NCBI GenBank assembly: GCA_030655795.1
Contig: JAUSPJ010000271.1
Location: 1-26,449 of the forward strand
Origin: Fidelibacterota bacterium
Lineage (GTDB): Bacteria; Fidelibacterota; UBA2242
DNA length: 26,449 bases
Direction: 5' to 3'
In this document: in pieces, positions 7,990 through 13,387 of the stretch
How positions within the stretch are numbered: position 1 is the stretch's first letter
How the letters are laid out: each line of letters begins with the position of its first letter
Notes under the pieces: model-generated
The model's database searches: none
Told to the model about the DNA's origin: nothing
Seen by the model: only the letters and a program-made list of their open reading frames with translations
Translations under genes and position numbers: made by a program

Positions 7990-8768
7990 GTAAAATATTT
8001 AACCAAATCCTGACATCTAAAAAACAGCAAAACGAAAAGTATCTTTCCATATTCCTGACCGCCGGATTTCCGGAAAAAGACGATACGGTCGACATCATCC
8101 TGCAACTGGCCGAAAACGGTGTTGATTTTATTGAATTGGGAATTCCCTTTTCCGATCCCATTGCTGATGGGCCAGTAATCCAAAAAGCCTCAGACAAAGC
8201 CCTGACAAACGGCATTAGGCTGAAAGATGTGTTAAACATCGTAAAAAAGGTCAGAGAATCATCGGACATACCTGTTATCCTGATGGGTTACCTGAATCCA
8301 ATTCATACAATGGGTATAGAAATGTTTTTAAATAATGCTAAAGAAGCGGGCGTTGACGGCCTGATCATACCGGATTGGCCTTATGAAGAAAGTCACCTTT
8401 ATTTAGAGCAGATGCAGCGTGCGGATATTGATCTGATTCACCTGATTGCACCAAATACGCCCAAAACAAGAATCCGGGAAATTGACACTATCAGTACGTC
8501 CTTTATCTATTGTGTGGCATATACCGGCGTCACCGGTCAGGATAACAGACCAACCCGGAGAACAACTGAATTTTTTAAGTATCTAAACCAAACCCTGAAA
8601 CATCCCTGGATTATCGGATTCGGAGTAAATAACCACCGGGATTTTCAACTATATACACAATATTCCGACGGCGTGATTATCGGTTCCGCCTTTATTCAAC
8701 TCCTGGAAACAACCCCGGCATCTGCCCGCATAGCCGCCATCCGGTCATTTATCAGAGGTGTCAAATAA
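7986..8768 (+). CDS. trpA: Tryptophan synthase alpha chain
   Basis: [22 protein letters not shown] and [11 protein letters not shown]; ATGA overlap with trpB. Confidence 0.97.
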
Positions 8769-8771
8769 TCC

Positions 8772-8810
8772 TTCAAGAAGATTTAAAACTAACTTCTTCT
8801 TGAATATTTT
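8772..8810 (+). terminator. Possible terminator of the trp operon
   Basis: Perfect 10-bp inverted repeat TTCAAGAAGA (8772-8781) / TCTTCTTGAA (8795-8804) with a 13-nt loop, followed by TATTTT. The stem is AT-rich, so it is only moderately convincing. Confidence 0.45.
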
Positions 8811-8849
8811 GTTATAATTGTGTAAATATAATCATTGCCGGAAGGGTTT

Positions 8850-9218
8850 ATGAAAAATCAATTGCGAAATTTTATCGAAATCCTCAAACTGGAACTGGAC
8901 GACCTGCAGGATGATATTCATTCTCTCAAGAAAATCTGCGAGCGCAAACTGAAAGATGGTCTGATTACCAATTACGTTCAAATGGAAAATATGGCACTCT
9001 ATGATAATGAGCTCCATGCAATAAATTCCTTCCGTAATATCCTAAATGAAACCAATCCCGAAAACTTCGATTCACTAGAAAAACTGGTGTTTCACCTGGA
9101 TGAAAATTTCAAAGCCACAATGAAGTCCTGCGCTTACGCCAAAGCCGGGCATATCTGCATCGAGCGCAAGATGCTGAAAGTGGCGAAGTATGTTCGGGGC
9201 GATGGATTCTCAAATTGA
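8850..9218 (+). CDS. Hypothetical protein, about 122 aa, predicted alpha-helical
   Basis: Clean ORF with GAAGGG before ATG 8850, amphipathic helical pattern (LKLELDDLQDDIHSL), filling the gap between trpA and the repeats. No family recognised. Confidence 0.7.
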   Translation: MKNQLRNFIEILKLELDDLQDDIHSLKKICERKLKDGLITNYVQMENMALYDNELHAINSFRNILNETNPENFDSLEKLVFHLDENFKATMKSCAYAKAGHICIERKMLKVAKYVRGDGFSN

Positions 9219-9264
9219 AATATTAAAGGTAAAAGGAAAAATTAAAAAGTATAATACCTCATTC

Positions 9265-9357
9265 GTCATCTCGCATCCCCGATTCATCGGGGTGAGAGAT
9301 CGGGTAAGACAAATACACAGGTCTTAACCGATTTTTCATCGTCCCGACACAGGTCGG
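9265..9357. repeat. REP-like palindromic unit, with its second half truncated by the IS
   Basis: GTCATCTCG-CAT-CCCCGAT-TC-ATCGGGG-T-GAGAGATC (9265-9301), a spacer hairpin GGTAAGAC/GTCTTAACC, then GATTTTTCATCGTC-CCGAC-ACAG-GTCGG ending at the IS left end. Confidence 0.7.
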
Positions 9358-9598
9358 CAATTTTATCATATAAATTAATTTGCCAAAAATTCGATATATA
9401 ATAATGAATATGCAGGATAAATCAGTACAATATTGAGGTAAAGGACAAATTAAATATGACGGTTATTATAGATAATCGTTTTATTGAATTTTTGAGATTA
9501 TCATAAATTTCATATTTACGCCTCCTTTTGTTTGGACATGTGTTATACTTTTTATTTGCTAAAAATACTATTTTGCAGAAATAACCGCCATATATTAA

Positions 9599-9627
9599 TT
9601 GACTTTCTCCTTTTTGTATATTATATT
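9599..9627 (+). promoter_or_regulatory. Putative internal sigma70 promoter of the transposase
   Basis: TTGACT (9599-9604), 17 nt, TATATT (9622-9627), upstream of GAAAGGGG and ATG 9658. The context is AT-rich, so a chance match is possible. Confidence 0.5.
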
Positions 9628-9657
9628 TACCATTATGAATTAATATTAGAAAGGGGT

Positions 9658-10113
9658 ATGATAATGGCAATTAAAAGGCAGAATAATTTCTTCTTTTCCG
9701 GCACCTCAGGTTGTCTTGCTATTAATCCTTCCGACAGTGCTGCTATAAAATTAGCTATGCTGATTGAGGGTAAATGTATGGGGTTAGGTCCTACCAAAGC
9801 TGCAAAGAAGTATGGATATACTAAACAACACTTTTTTCAAGTTCTTAATGCTTACAATGAAGGTGGAATAAAAGCGCTTAAGGATAAGAAAAGGGGACCA
9901 AGGGGAAAATACGTTAGGACTGAAGTCACAGAGAACCAAATTATTCGGCATCGATTTTTAGATCCAGACGCAAGTCCAAAAGCTATTACTCAGAAGTTAA
10001 ATCAAAGTGGATATAGAGTCAGCCTAAGGAGTGTGGAACGTACCATTACAGAAAAAGTGTTACAAAAAAAAACTTCACTTATTAAATCCTCAAAAAGAGG
10101 TAAAACCGATTGA
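9658..10113 (+). CDS. IS OrfA, helix-turn-helix DNA-binding part of the transposase
   Basis: TKAAKKYGYTKQHFFQVL...GGIKALKDKKRGPR followed by a second HTH-like segment, SPKAITQKL...SLRSVER. RBS lies before ATG 9658/9664, so the longer track start at 9532 is unlikely. Confidence 0.8.
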   Translation: MIMAIKRQNNFFFSGTSGCLAINPSDSAAIKLAMLIEGKCMGLGPTKAAKKYGYTKQHFFQVLNAYNEGGIKALKDKKRGPRGKYVRTEVTENQIIRHRFLDPDASPKAITQKLNQSGYRVSLRSVERTITEKVLQKKTSLIKSSKRGKTD

Positions 10114-11480
10114 AGTTCATGTAACAAAACGGGGAACGGAAAGCCGTTCTGCAGATGTAGAAAGTATAGAGCGTGGTGTCAGAGAATTATTGGCACAGAA
10201 AGTATCCGGAACTTTGTTAGGTATATGGTTATTGATTCCAGAGCATTTGCGTTTAGGGACATGGGATTTACTAACTACATGGACTGGTGATAATCACAGT
10301 GGGATTAAACCACGTTTAGCCCTTCAAATGGTTCATGAATCCGCGTTATGTACAACAGGAATTCGTCAAACACGTTCCTTATGTCATCAAAGTTTTGAAT
10401 TGGCAAACGGTTTACCATACATTGCCACAGATGAGGAAGTTCATTATTTATTGGATGAACACAGTATTGATGAAGCAAAAAAGTTGCAGATTAGGTTGGC
10501 TTTGCTTCGTCAATGTCTTGGGCATTATAAGAGTAATATTTTAGCCTTTGATCCCCACCGAATTCGTACTTATTCTCGCCGTATTATGCCAAAAAAGAAG
10601 AGTCGTCCCAATGAACGTTCCAATCCAGTTCTTCAGACATTTTTTGGCTTAGACGTACAGACGGGGCAACCTCTGGGATTTACCATAGGGTCATCAGGAA
10701 AAACAACTACAAGAGCTTCTTTAGAATTGTTAGAGATGATGGACATGATTTTACCATCAAATAATGTGTTACTTTTAGCAGATACAGAACATGAAAGTTG
10801 TAGATTAATAGATCACATTATCGAAAGTGACAGATACGATATTTTAATGCCCGCTGCCCGAAAGAAAGCTGTTATCAATACGATTAAAAATCTGGAATAT
10901 AAGCGTCACTGGGCTGGTTATGCCACTGCTGAAACGCAATACAGATATAAAGAAAATAAGCATGAATTCAGATTAATTGGACAGCGTAGCGGCGAAAAGG
11001 AAGAAGAATATAATTACAAACCTTTTATTACTACTGGAGATAACTCTTCCTTGGAATTAATTACAGAAGATTATCCAGAGCGATGGACTATAGAAGAATT
11101 CTTCAACTTTGAAGGAGCAATGGGATGGGATCGTGCGTCAACTATGAATTTAAACATTCGATATGGAAAACTCTCTTTGGCTCTTATTGCTCAAGCAGCA
11201 ACTTACCAACTTAAGAAAATATTGCCAAAACCATATAGAAAATGGACAGCTCCGAAGGAGTCTCTACGAGACAAAACATCTTGCAGATTCCATTTTACGT
11301 GGAATTGATGGTGATTTGCGTGTAAAGGATGATACTATCATTGCTACTTTATATAATGTACCTGAATCATTAAATTTGAAACAATATTATGAAGATTTAC
11401 CAAGTAAATTAGAGAGAGAAGGCATCAATCCTAAAATACCATGGCTGTTTGATTTTAAGTTGGATTTTCGATTCAAATAG
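10061..11480 (+). pseudogene. IS OrfB, DDE catalytic part of the transposase, frameshifted by a 22-bp insertion at 11251-11272
   Basis: Acidic motifs AFDPH and LLADTEH, plus YPERWTIE matching the Y-x2-R-x3-E signature of IS4-superfamily transposases. Frame 2 runs to KWTA and frame 3 resumes with KHLADSILRGIDGDLRV…FRFK-stop, just inside the right TIR. Confidence 0.85.
11251..11272. repeat. 22-bp double mini-hairpin insertion TCCGAAGGAGTCTCTACGAGAC
   Basis: TCC-GAA-GGA followed by GTCTC-TAC-GAGAC. Removing exactly these 22 nt restores the reading frame (TGG ACA GCA AAA CAT CTT = WTAKHL). Confidence 0.75.
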
Positions 11481-11516
11481 TATTGATGAGTCAAATTTAT
11501 TTGGGGTATAAAATTG

Positions 11517-11926
11517 CTGATAAATCGAGACAACGAAGTATCCCTTATGACCAAGGTTACGAACATTGCAGATACATTTGGGGTTTAAATCTGGCTGCGG
11601 GGCTGTGCTCCGTAGCCACGTATCCGTTCCGGAGCATGAGCCCCGGAACGAGAAATACATTGGGGTTGTGGGGGATTTTTTCGTCTTCATCCCGACTTCC
11701 GTCGGAATTTCACCGGACAGGTCGGTCGTATACTCACTCAGATGACTTGACAAGAACCTGTCATACTGAGGAGTCCCGATGCAATCGGGGTGACGAAGTA
11801 TCCCTAAGGACCAATGCGAATAGCTCAAATTTCCCGGATTGGATTCACCGCTCCAACACTCCAGTTCTCCATCGCTCCACTCTTGATAAAGGGAGATTCT
11901 TCGGTCGTTAACTCCTTCAGAAAGAC
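11517..11926. repeat. Array of REP-like inverted half-units with further hairpins (BIME-like)
   Basis: ACGAAGTATCCCTTATGACCAA (11533-11554) and ACGAAGTATCCCTAAGGACCAA (11793-11814) are 20 of 22 identical. ACTCACTCAGATGAC (11732-11746) is inverted to GTCATACTGAGGAGT (11760-11774). CCCGAT-GCA-ATCGGG is an internal palindrome. The array closes with the half-unit GGGAGATTCTTCGGTCGTTAACTCCTTCAGAAAGAC (11891-11926). Confidence 0.72.
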
Positions 11927-11938
11927 AAAGAAACAATA

Positions 11939-13387
11939 TCAATAATCTTCTTCGATATCACTATAATCGGTTTTTTCTATTTCCCGTAGCACTTTCAATT
12001 CCGCTTCGGTGTACTTCTCAATCGTAAATCCCGTGTATCCATAAAAAATCGAAACCAGCGGGTTGATGAGGTTCAGGAACGCAAAGGGCAAATAAGCAAA
12101 GGGATAAACTCCCAGCGTGGCGAACATAAACGCGCCCCCGCTGTTCCAGGGAATCAGCGAAGAGGTCAGTGTCCCGGCATCCTCCAGAATACGGCTGAGG
12201 TTCTTCGGCTTCAGCCCCCGGTCGTCATAAATCTTTTTAAACATACGGCCCGGCAAAACAATCGCCAGGTACTGGTCCCCGGCAATCATATTCGTCCCGA
12301 TACAGGTCAGAACGGTAGCCGTCACCAGTGAACCGGTACTCTTTGCCACGGAAATAATTTTCAGTGCGATGGCTTTCAGCATACCGGAGGATTCCAATAC
12401 ACCGGCAAAACTCATGGCGCAGAGAATCAGCGAAACCGTCCACATCATACTGTCCAGCCCGCCGCGGGTCAGAAGATTATCAATCGCCTCATTCCCCGTG
12501 GCCGCAACAAAACCGTAGTGGGCACTTTGGACGATATCATTCAACGATGTGTGCTGAAACAGGGCCGCAAACAGTCCGCCCAGGACCGTTCCGCCCAGCA
12601 GTCCGGGAATCGCCGGCACTTTGAATATCACCATGCCAATCACCAGCAGCGGCGGCAGCAACAGGACCGGCGAGATAAAAAACTGGTCCGACAGGCCATT
12701 AAGAATGACATTGATAGCATTCATATCCAGATCTTTACCGCCGTATCTCAGGCCAAGGAAGGTATACAGAATCAGGGCAATAACCAGACTCGGCCCGGTT
12801 GTATAGACCATATGCCGGATATGCTCAAAAAGTTTTGCGCCCGTCACGGCCGGAGCCAGGTTTGTAGTATCCGACAGCGGCGACATTTTATCCCCGAAAT
12901 AAGCCCCGGAAATGATTGCCCCGGCCACCATGGGCAATGGAATGCCAAACCCTTTCCCGATCCCGATAAGGGCAACACCCACCGTACCGGCTGTGGTCCA
13001 TGAACTTCCCGTCGCTAATGAAACAATACAGCAGATCAGCGCCGTAGCCAGCAGAAACACGCGCGGTGAAATAATTTTCAATCCGTAATAGATCATGGTC
13101 GGCACAATACCGGCGGTAATCCAGGTGCCGATGATCATCCCGATAATCATTAAAACCAGGATAGCCGGCAGTGAAATTTTAATCGTATTGATCATGCCGG
13201 TCCGTATCTTTTCCCAGCGATAGCCGGAAAAAACGGCCACAATCGCAGCCACTGCAGCTGCGGATATTAGCGGGATATGCGGGTCACCATGGAGAAATCT
13301 CAGCACATATACCAGCACTAGGGCCAGGTAAATTACCGGAACAATTGCCCACCTGAATGGTATTACGAGTTCGGTCTTTTTTTTCAT
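11939..13387 (-). CDS. nhaC: Na+/H+ antiporter NhaC family membrane transporter
   Basis: Polytopic protein with GSSWTTAGTVG, SGAYFGDKMSPLSDTTN, RGGLDSM and LEDAGTLTSSLIPWN motifs. Substrate could equally be an amino acid or malate/lactate, as for other family members. Confidence 0.92.
   Translation of the reverse strand: MKKKTELVIPFRWAIVPVIYLALVLVYVLRFLHGDPHIPLISAAAVAAIVAVFSGYRWEKIRTGMINTIKISLPAILVLMIIGMIIGTWITAGIVPTMIYYGLKIISPRVFLLATALICCIVSLATGSSWTTAGTVGVALIGIGKGFGIPLPMVAGAIISGAYFGDKMSPLSDTTNLAPAVTGAKLFEHIRHMVYTTGPSLVIALILYTFLGLRYGGKDLDMNAINVILNGLSDQFFISPVLLLPPLLVIGMVIFKVPAIPGLLGGTVLGGLFAALFQHTSLNDIVQSAHYGFVAATGNEAIDNLLTRGGLDSMMWTVSLILCAMSFAGVLESSGMLKAIALKIISVAKSTGSLVTATVLTCIGTNMIAGDQYLAIVLPGRMFKKIYDDRGLKPKNLSRILEDAGTLTSSLIPWNSGGAFMFATLGVYPFAYLPFAFLNLINPLVSIFYGYTGFTIEKYTEAELKVLREIEKTDYSDIEEDY

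Follow-up and report, generated by a model that had tools for sequence, protein, structure and literature searches.

A 22-nucleotide double mini-hairpin, apparently mobile, within a transposase gene of Marinimicrobia

The interrupted transposase gene

The window analysed here comprises 26,449 nucleotides (nt) of contig JAUSPJ010000271.1 (forward strand; assembly GCA_030655795.1), from a metagenome-assembled genome (MAG) of the phylum Marinimicrobia (Candidatus Neomarinimicrobiota). It carries an insertion sequence (IS) whose transposase gene is interrupted by an apparently mobile element of 22 nt, made of two abutting mini-hairpins and hereafter named DH#1 (Table 1). The MAG, labelled G000 below, is fragmented, 2.03 Mb in size and 70% complete; the other G-numbers designate genomes of relatives, L-numbers loci or contigs, X-numbers sequencing runs and P-numbers proteins. 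A pattern census was carried out over 301 genomes of the phylum and the finer comparisons over 30 family genomes, while the contigs of the runs X1 (the probable source run), X2 and X3 are Logan assemblies, not raw reads.

The open reading frame (ORF) upstream of the insertion, 10031-11308, encodes 425 amino acids (aa), and the downstream frame, which runs to 11480, lies 22 nt out of register with it. Fusion of 10031-11248 to 11274-11477 yields a 475-aa protein with one continuous DDE_Tnp_1 match (PF01609, E 6e-12) and 2,597 homologues, the best of which is an intact 476-aa protein with 91% identity over 100% of the length. Across the insertion point this homologue reads ...YRKWTAKHLADS... (also ...PYRKWTAKHLADSILRG...), and IS copies of the relatives G008 and G025, which lack exactly these 22 nt, read W-T-A/S-K-H-L-A. 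Because both the intact homologues and the empty IS copies are without exactly those nucleotides, the source of the frameshift is a discrete 22-nt insertion, TCCGAAGGAGTCTCTACGAGAC at 11251-11272. The preliminary description of the window had already proposed such a block of two abutting mini-hairpins, whose excision restores W-T-A-K-H-L-A, and had expected intact homologues to read W-x-A-x-H-L-A at this site, as they and the empty copies do.

Other parts of that description agree with the present data. The block was said to duplicate no neighbouring sequence, with at most 1 bp of boundary ambiguity, and the ambiguity found is a single C, the register 11250-11271 giving exactly two units of 11 nt. 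It was said to be more GC-rich than the IS, and its content is 12/22 (55%) as compared to approximately 30-45%. No second copy had been seen in the window, and none of the exact 22-mer exists either there or in the 2.03-Mb, 70%-complete MAG, even when up to 3 mismatches are allowed; beyond the MAG, the exact 22-mer was found only at this same site in other IS copies. On the other hand, the GGAGTC core shared with positions 11770-11775, which had been read as a link to repetitive extragenic palindromic (REP) sequences, was judged a 6-mer coincidence and given no weight. The loop of unit 1 is C-GAA-G and that of unit 2, on the other strand, C-GTA-G, so a GNA loop with a C:G closing pair is present in both. 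A scan of positions 8500-12500 against Rfam, with E up to 1, gave no match.

Table 1. Window coordinates of DH#1, its two units, the host insertion sequence and a neighbouring hairpin
Feature	Position	Strand	Remarks
DH#1, 22-nt double mini-hairpin	11250..11271 (equivalently 11251-11272)	.	Missing from empty IS copies and from the ~99%-identical X2/X3 contigs
Unit 1, CTCC-GAA-GGAG	11250..11260	+	4-bp stem, GAA loop closed by C:G; GNA 'mini-hairpin DNA' motif on + strand
Unit 2, TCTC-TAC-GAGA	11261..11271	-	Reads TCTC-GTA-GAGA on - strand, with a GNA-type loop there
Host IS, ~2.17 kb	9354..11520	+	Imperfect terminal inverted repeats 9354-9382 and 11492-11520
Helix-turn-helix OrfA of host IS	9664-10113		Encoded by the IS together with the transposase
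Transposase ORF (DDE_Tnp_1), part 5' of the insertion	10031..11248	+	Frame runs on to stop 11306-11308
Transposase, C-terminal part	11274..11480	+	68 codons + stop; +1 frame relative to the upstream part
REP-like hairpin CGTTCCGG...CCGGAACGAG	11636..11662	.	Context only, outside the element; type found beside RAYT-like genes in relatives

Some further features of this IS family may be recorded here. The start of another contig of the MAG (C130:1-92) equals window positions 11439-11530, the last 92 nt of the IS region, and then diverges, and therefore the MAG holds at least one further IS copy or a strain variant. The run of nine A residues at the OrfA/OrfB junction (window 10064-10072) is kept in all full-length IS copies, and the metagenomic copy L058 has one additional G directly after it (alignment column 439). 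Finally, in the metagenomic copy L109 (Ga0111033_1090913, ~2490-2510, corresponding to window ~11094-11102) 9 nt of the ORF (AAGAATTCT) are swapped for a perfect palindrome of 16 nt, TCCCGAC-TG-GTCGGGA, which produces a frameshift; its CCGAC/GTCGG core is also found in REP-like units beside the IS of the window (9344, 11692).

A family of double mini-hairpins

Abutting pairs of hairpins with a 4-bp stem and a 3-nt loop occur 106 times in G000, as compared to 36-49 times in three Markov-3 simulations, and 65-66 of these pairs have a C..G closing pair in both units, where about 3 would be expected. Their architecture is NNYC-RNA-GRNN followed by NNYC-TNY-GRNN, two 11-nt units without a spacer, and the position matrix of the 66 G000 copies reads T-N-Y-C-R-N-A-G-R-N-A twice over. 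The first loop is of the purine type (GAA 23, AAA 17, GCA, GTA, AGA and others), its first base being G in 36 copies and A in 29, and its last base A in 59, while the second loop is of the complementary type (TTC 19, TTT 13, TAC 7 and others). When only the loop frame is fixed, 51 of the 125 matches in G000 are perfect double hairpins (~0.03 expected), and the reverse loop order gives none in 57. Since the reverse complement of a hairpin with an R-type loop followed by a hairpin with a Y-type loop has the identical form, the element is a dyad, each strand of which starts with a C-RNA-G hairpin. The class of 22 nt is dominant, with a few versions of 23-24 nt that have 4-nt loops.

Family members sit preferentially at TTN^NAA-like sites; most are intergenic, and the intragenic ones observed lie in dispensable or selfish genes. 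All G000 copies are placed outside long ORFs, except for DH#1 and one probable chance match within a gene (C308:1822), and they are often found within composite repeat islands; the 5′ flank is TTN in 39 of the 66 copies and the 3′ flank NAA in about 31, and neither a GTAG nor a CGTC tag is present in the position matrix or flanks of these 66. In the family genomes, a search for the DH#1 22-mer that allowed up to 2 mismatches gave 16 sites, spread over 7 of the 30 and with unrelated flanks, as compared to none for the reversed control; near-identical 22-mers are found in metagenomes too. The commonest variant of G000, TGTCGAAGACATCTCTTCGAGA, has (with up to 1 mismatch) 11 copies in G000, 19 in G008 and 10 in G025. 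The suggestion of the preliminary description that the element might be multicopy is thus borne out for the architecture and for near variants, although not for the exact 22-mer, which keeps to its one site in the IS.

A degenerate self-complementary pattern revealed between 0 and 210 sites per genome across the phylum, most genomes having 0-3, which is also the range of the reversed control; larger numbers were found in G008 (210), G057 (93), G025 (91), G021 (75), G130 (62) and G000 (52). Counts within genera vary up to 100-fold (in the genus g1: 52, 24, 6, 4, 3, 2 and 1), which fits something that expands and is lost. A literature search on Marinimicrobia with REP returned nothing relevant, and we know of no published description of this double-hairpin family.

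With regard to the surroundings of the repeats, two gene spacers of G000 (C179:5690-5970 and C87:2000-2930) are repeat islands of 277 nt and ~900 nt, as compared to 89 nt and 16-118 nt in G005/G003/G001 of the same genus, and they are built from double hairpins together with other dispersed modules that match many loci of G005. Short tandem arrays, (AAATTTC)n or (GGATACT/GGATGCT)n, often bracket double hairpins (G000 C43:6090-6170, C225:970-1110 and C11:1990-2140). In G024 (C148; L007, 1100-1570), a cluster of five different intergenic double hairpins lies just upstream of the gene for a four-helix-bundle protein of the 23S rRNA intervening-sequence type, and in G025 (C577; L021), an ORF of GxxExxY-like appearance directly follows a copy that lies ~230 nt upstream of a small GIY-YIG gene. 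Small accessory ORFs and double-hairpin repeats apparently have hot spots in common.

Filled and empty sites, and the history of DH#1

Family members other than DH#1 also interrupt genes and repeats. The IS copy L058 has a different 22-mer, TCCCAAAGGGATGTCTTCGACA, ~570 nt upstream in the same ORF, which no other copy has. A version of 24 nt, TCCCAACAGGGATCCCTTGCGGGA, has loops of 4 nt (AACA/GCAA) and, being in frame, extends transposases that are otherwise intact (L008, L111, P0004, P0005) by SQQGSLAG; its site is empty in the window (position 10396) and filled in a contig of the metatranscriptome run X20 that is 98% identical to the window. One transposase carrying this 24-mer is recorded on 12 contigs. 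In G025, CTCCAAAGGAGTCTCTTCGAGA lies within a HepT-like toxin gene and TTCCGAAGGAATCTCTACGAGA within a MazF/PemK-like gene, and in G008, CTCCGAAGGAGTCCCTACGGGA is placed within another DDE transposase gene. In-silico excision at the last three sites gives a single ORF, with Pfam matches that span the break (HepT 1e-17, PemK 5e-20, DDE 5e-4). Also in G008, TGCCGTAGGCATCTCTACGAGG is inserted in both inverted REPs beside a 177-aa gene similar to those of REP-associated tyrosine transposases (RAYT), whose 94%-identical orthologue in G018 has the same REPs without the insert.

None of the resolved sites (six intragenic or REP filled/empty comparisons) shows a target-site duplication. The left flanks at six gene sites are CAG, TTA, TTT, TTT, TTA and CTT, and the native flanks of the intragenic copies resemble the genome-wide TTN/NAA flanks. 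These pairs answer the call of the preliminary description for a comparison of filled and empty alleles, which turned out precise, and for a target consensus, for which only the loose TTN/NAA preference emerged. They also agree with its image of a parasite of a parasite, given that family copies are inserted precisely and without target duplication in IS, toxin genes and REPs, whereas the peptide additions that it foresaw apply to the in-frame 24-nt version, the 22-mer itself shifting the frame. At orthologous intergenic sites of same-genus genomes, the filled/empty comparison yielded no pair: the coding flanks can be aligned (74-88%), whereas the spacers, whose lengths vary several-fold, cannot.

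In the case of DH#1 itself, contigs from two other metagenomes (X2 and X3) span positions 11062-11520 with only 4 substitutions (~99% identity) and lack exactly the 22 nt, whereas the X1 contig has them with 0 differences. At least four other IS copies, 9-13% diverged, carry the identical 22-mer, including its minority TAC loop, at the same site (L058, L109/L110 and L111, all from metagenomes); in G018, the right 9 nt of DH#1 are left at the edge of a truncated IS copy. Contrary to the preliminary description, the element was therefore not inserted de novo here. An adapter, a chimeric assembly join or a template switch at a quasi-palindrome of neighbouring sequence could in principle have created such a block, since the genome is a fragmented, 70%-complete MAG and palindromes are classic products of template switching. 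However, the same 22-mer recurs at this site in independent assemblies of other studies (partly so in G018), no local template for it exists, and near-identical 22-mers are found at unrelated loci, which makes this origin extremely improbable.

In trees of the IS, the filled copies form two groups and the empty copies L003/L004 a third, all joined at one node, and therefore one gain would suffice for them. The X2/X3 empties, and probably L008, nest inside a filled group, which calls for at least one scarless loss or for repeated site-specific gain, while DH#1 and the 24-mer occur in all four combinations (four gametes), and hence there was either recombination or recurrent gain and loss. DH#1 entered the transposase gene of this IS family once or a few times, and parsimony suggests an exact loss of the element that restored the frame.

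The double hairpins might alternatively not be mobile by themselves. They would then be functional modules, such as binding sites of dimeric proteins or punctuation in transcripts or at replication, spread by homologous recombination or gene conversion between larger repeats, and DH#1 would have passed among IS copies by conversion. Stems that covary while the shape is kept, together with a strictly polar loop order (51 versus 0), suggest selection for function; moreover, many copies lie in composite repeat islands with conserved flanks, and the IS copies are mosaic. However, the insertions in HepT, MazF, the second transposase family and the REPs share no flanks at all, and copy number differs 100-fold within genera. 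Furthermore, the nearest differences between the window and other filled copies stand at -1, -8, -11 and +9 of the insert, and therefore a tract transferred by ordinary gene conversion would have to measure almost exactly 22 nt. We regard spread of this kind as quite improbable.

A last question about this site is whether the transposase is inactivated at all, as the preliminary description held: the frame is shifted, but inactivation is only inferred. Four full-length IS copies with the identical DH#1, which are 9-13% diverged, show ratios of nonsynonymous to synonymous substitution (dN/dS) of 0.10-0.29 upstream of the insert and, in the downstream frame, of 0.04-0.24 downstream of it, the same as between intact copies, and the copy of the window has no further lesion. 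In such copies the protein might still be made, either by a +1 ribosomal shift (A-AAA-A, 11273-11276) or by a hop from ACA at 11246-11248 to ACA at 11271-11273, or else the element might be a reversible DNA switch excised often enough. Ribosome hopping has precedents in phage T4 gene 60 and in the mitochondrial 'byp' elements; here, matching ACA codons bracket the 22-nt gap, AAGGAG lies inside it, and scarless empties exist at 99% identity. DH#1 itself has 0 variable sites in 22 as compared to 15.5% elsewhere (P ~0.025), yet 5.6% of ordinary 22-nt windows are equally invariant. Three of the four DH#1 copies have one further disabling lesion each, namely a second 22-mer, a nonsense codon or the exchange of 9 nt for a palindrome of 16 nt; empty copies are broken about as often, and RNA coverage over the DH#1 site is 0. 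Low dN/dS could also have arisen if the copies diverged before they acquired the element separately, or if IS copies recombined, in line with the four gametes. Because the ACA match at DH#1 has no comparable counterpart at the other intragenic double hairpins, which show no consistent take-off or landing codons or slippery sites, hopping or a +1 shift is kept only as a minor rival, and continued expression by any of these routes appears to have but a small chance of being correct. The gene may have been kept under selection by frequent gain and loss, by bypass at expression or, only apparently, by divergence before several acquisitions.

Candidate enzymes, known systems and significance

Our preferred reading, which we hold to be probable although far from settled, is that DH#1 is one copy of a dispersed family of ultra-short dyad repeats of Marinimicrobia, inserted precisely and without duplication, exactly losable and perhaps moved by an HUH enzyme. 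The elements would act as single-stranded DNA hairpins, and a trans-acting, hairpin-specific nuclease or ligase would move them. The likeliest mover would be a Y1 HUH transposase of the IS200/IS605 type, whose 'peel-and-paste' chemistry leaves neither duplication nor scar, and this candidate is favoured because target duplications are missing and both gain and loss are scarless. Genes of the Y1_Tnp family are present in 28 of the 30 family genomes, and their load correlates with the number of elements (Spearman 0.69, p 3e-5), as compared to 0.45 for DDE_Tnp_1, 0.32 for GIY-YIG and 0.23 for genome size as controls. In addition, the IS200-like tnpA genes of G008 are flanked by single mini-hairpins of like build (e.g. 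CTCC-ATA-GGAG and CCTC-TAC-GAGG), several of which have an R-type loop 5′ and a Y-type loop 3′ of the gene, and therefore a double hairpin could consist of the hairpins of the left and the right end, joined without any cargo.

Several observations weigh against this reading. No transposase gene was found, the tnpA loci of G008 included, with identical double hairpins as its own ends, and the cleavage and guide sequences outside the hairpins that IS200/IS605 transposition needs were not identified. Both the total load of mobile elements and the relatedness of the genomes confound the correlation with Y1 genes, and only 9 elements were counted in 62 kb around 15 Y1 genes of G008, where 3.4 would be expected. 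The target preference is loose, TTN standing on no more than those 39 of 66 5′ flanks and CAG to the left of DH#1, and stems that differ so widely would be explained by selection for shape no less well than by recent copying. The empty X2/X3 contigs come from Logan assemblies and not from raw reads, and all documented gains and losses concern repeated or selfish DNA. Finally, the predicted fold of the 22-mer as single-stranded DNA, with nearest-neighbour parameters, has -2.3 kcal/mol (z 0.08), no better than shuffles, and therefore the energy cannot be used as evidence. This unremarkable value is explained by the parameters themselves, which miss the stability of C-GNA-G and C-GNNA-G hairpins, the 'mini-hairpin DNA' motif that is ultra-stable as single-stranded DNA (PMC13037366). 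In any case, the evidence for the putative hairpins is their covariation across copies and not the energy of DH#1.

IS200-like tnpA genes flanked by pairs of mini-hairpins with GNNA-type loops (e.g. CCCC-GATA-GGGG), each followed by a conserved 'ttygctatttgt', were observed in G008 (L065-L070) and in G000 (C356:2480-2760), and this element family is common to both genomes.

Two other types of enzyme were considered as movers and rejected. A RAYT-type nuclease had been proposed in the preliminary description, with a retro-element as its alternative. The sole RAYT-like gene with double hairpins on both sides (G008:C74) has them as insertions into its own, different REPs, its G018 orthologue being without them, and strict scans of 22 RAYT-like loci gave no flanking pairs of double hairpins; the other RAYT-like loci have REPs of the CTCGTTCC...GGAACGAG type. 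For a retro-element origin there was no support, and the search for a nuclease gene flanked by the same motif, also suggested there, found none. The inverted REPs of the 177-aa RAYT-like gene (L073, 1840-2700, in G008:C74 and L080 in G018:C192) are of the form CTCGTTCCCAAG-N5-CTTGGGAACG, followed by tandem 'ggtccaacytgggaacgaga' units, and the REP-like hairpin of the window (11636-11662) is of the same type. As for GIY-YIG nucleases, their load correlates poorly with the number of elements (rho 0.32, p 0.08), 3 elements lie in 81 kb around 30 GIY-YIG genes, and both G000 and G017, which have many elements, contain only a large, probably UvrC-type, GIY-YIG match.

Among the systems known from other organisms, small dispersed repeats (SDRs) of heterocystous cyanobacteria are reportedly (Elhai et al. 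2008) 21-27 nt long, have hairpin potential and were held to be mobile from filled/empty sites and nesting, with no enzyme known. By description, which is the only level at which the two were compared, the double hairpins share with them the very small size, the dispersal, the hairpin potential and the filled/empty sites, but they belong to another phylum and are apparently unrelated in sequence, and neither the strict dyad of two mini-hairpins with GNA loops nor frameshifts in coding genes are known features of SDRs. IS200/IS605 elements and their derivatives, such as palindrome-associated transposable elements (PATEs), also move without target duplication or scar and have end hairpins recognised as single-stranded DNA, and the tnpA genes common here have mini-hairpins of like build. 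However, their known derivatives are ~100 nt long or more and keep guide and cleavage sequences, whereas here there are two 11-nt hairpins alone and no evident fixed 5′ target of 4-5 nt. Miniature inverted-repeat transposable elements (MITEs) are far larger, and the double hairpins do not belong to them, since every resolved site lacks a target duplication.

In fungi, mitochondrial double-hairpin elements, GC clusters and the 'byp' elements that are said to have been described by Lang et al. (2014) resemble the family as short, GC-richer double-hairpin repeats that invade intergenic DNA, rRNA genes and some protein genes, some of them in frame or bypassed. The hairpins of sponges are alike in this, but all of these are organellar, usually of 26-80 nt and without any sequence relation, and there is no evidence of bypass for DH#1. 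The sponge examples are repetitive hairpin elements of mitochondrial DNA (PMC2800124). REP and REPIN elements, for their part, are moved by RAYT (TnpA_REP) transposases of the Y1 HUH type (PMC3116915; PMC3733652). Like the present family, they are short palindromic repeats, patchy and for the most part extragenic, which number tens to hundreds and have an inverted pair of hairpins as the unit and a presumed HUH enzyme specific for single-stranded hairpins. On the other hand, a double hairpin has about half to a third of their size (22 nt without a spacer, as compared to 20-40 nt for each REP) and no GTAG/CGTC tag, its stems vary while its loops are fixed as RNA/TNY, and no RAYT with flanking double hairpins of its own came to light. 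The RAYT-like genes of these genomes have different REPs, which in G008 are themselves targets of double hairpins.

A bolder proposal goes further: the double mini-hairpins of 22-24 nt would be the smallest transposable DNA yet seen, made up solely of a left and a right GNA mini-hairpin, phylum-wide and perhaps spread through the whole Fibrobacteres-Chlorobi-Bacteroidetes (FCB) group, moved as single-stranded DNA by HUH enzymes of the IS200 type, and their scarless excision would turn them into reversible on/off gene switches, which would explain purifying selection through ~13% divergence. We consider it rather unlikely that the proposal holds at this full extent.

The element has the behaviour of mobile DNA, and its size would place it among the smallest such elements known. 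If 22 nt of two mini-hairpins are indeed inserted and removed exactly, they would set a new lower size limit for mobile DNA and would provide a minimal substrate on which to study target choice and cleavage by single-strand transposases specific for hairpins. In annotations, a gene divided by a double hairpin resembles a pseudogene or a pair of ORFs. How a transposase gene that is otherwise intact and under selection persists with the element in it is a testable question. The elements make frameshifts and short peptide insertions, pile preferentially into other selfish DNA (IS, toxin-antitoxin genes and REPs) and differ 100-fold between sister genomes, which makes them a genuine source of genome variation in an abundant, uncultured phylum of marine and subsurface habitats.

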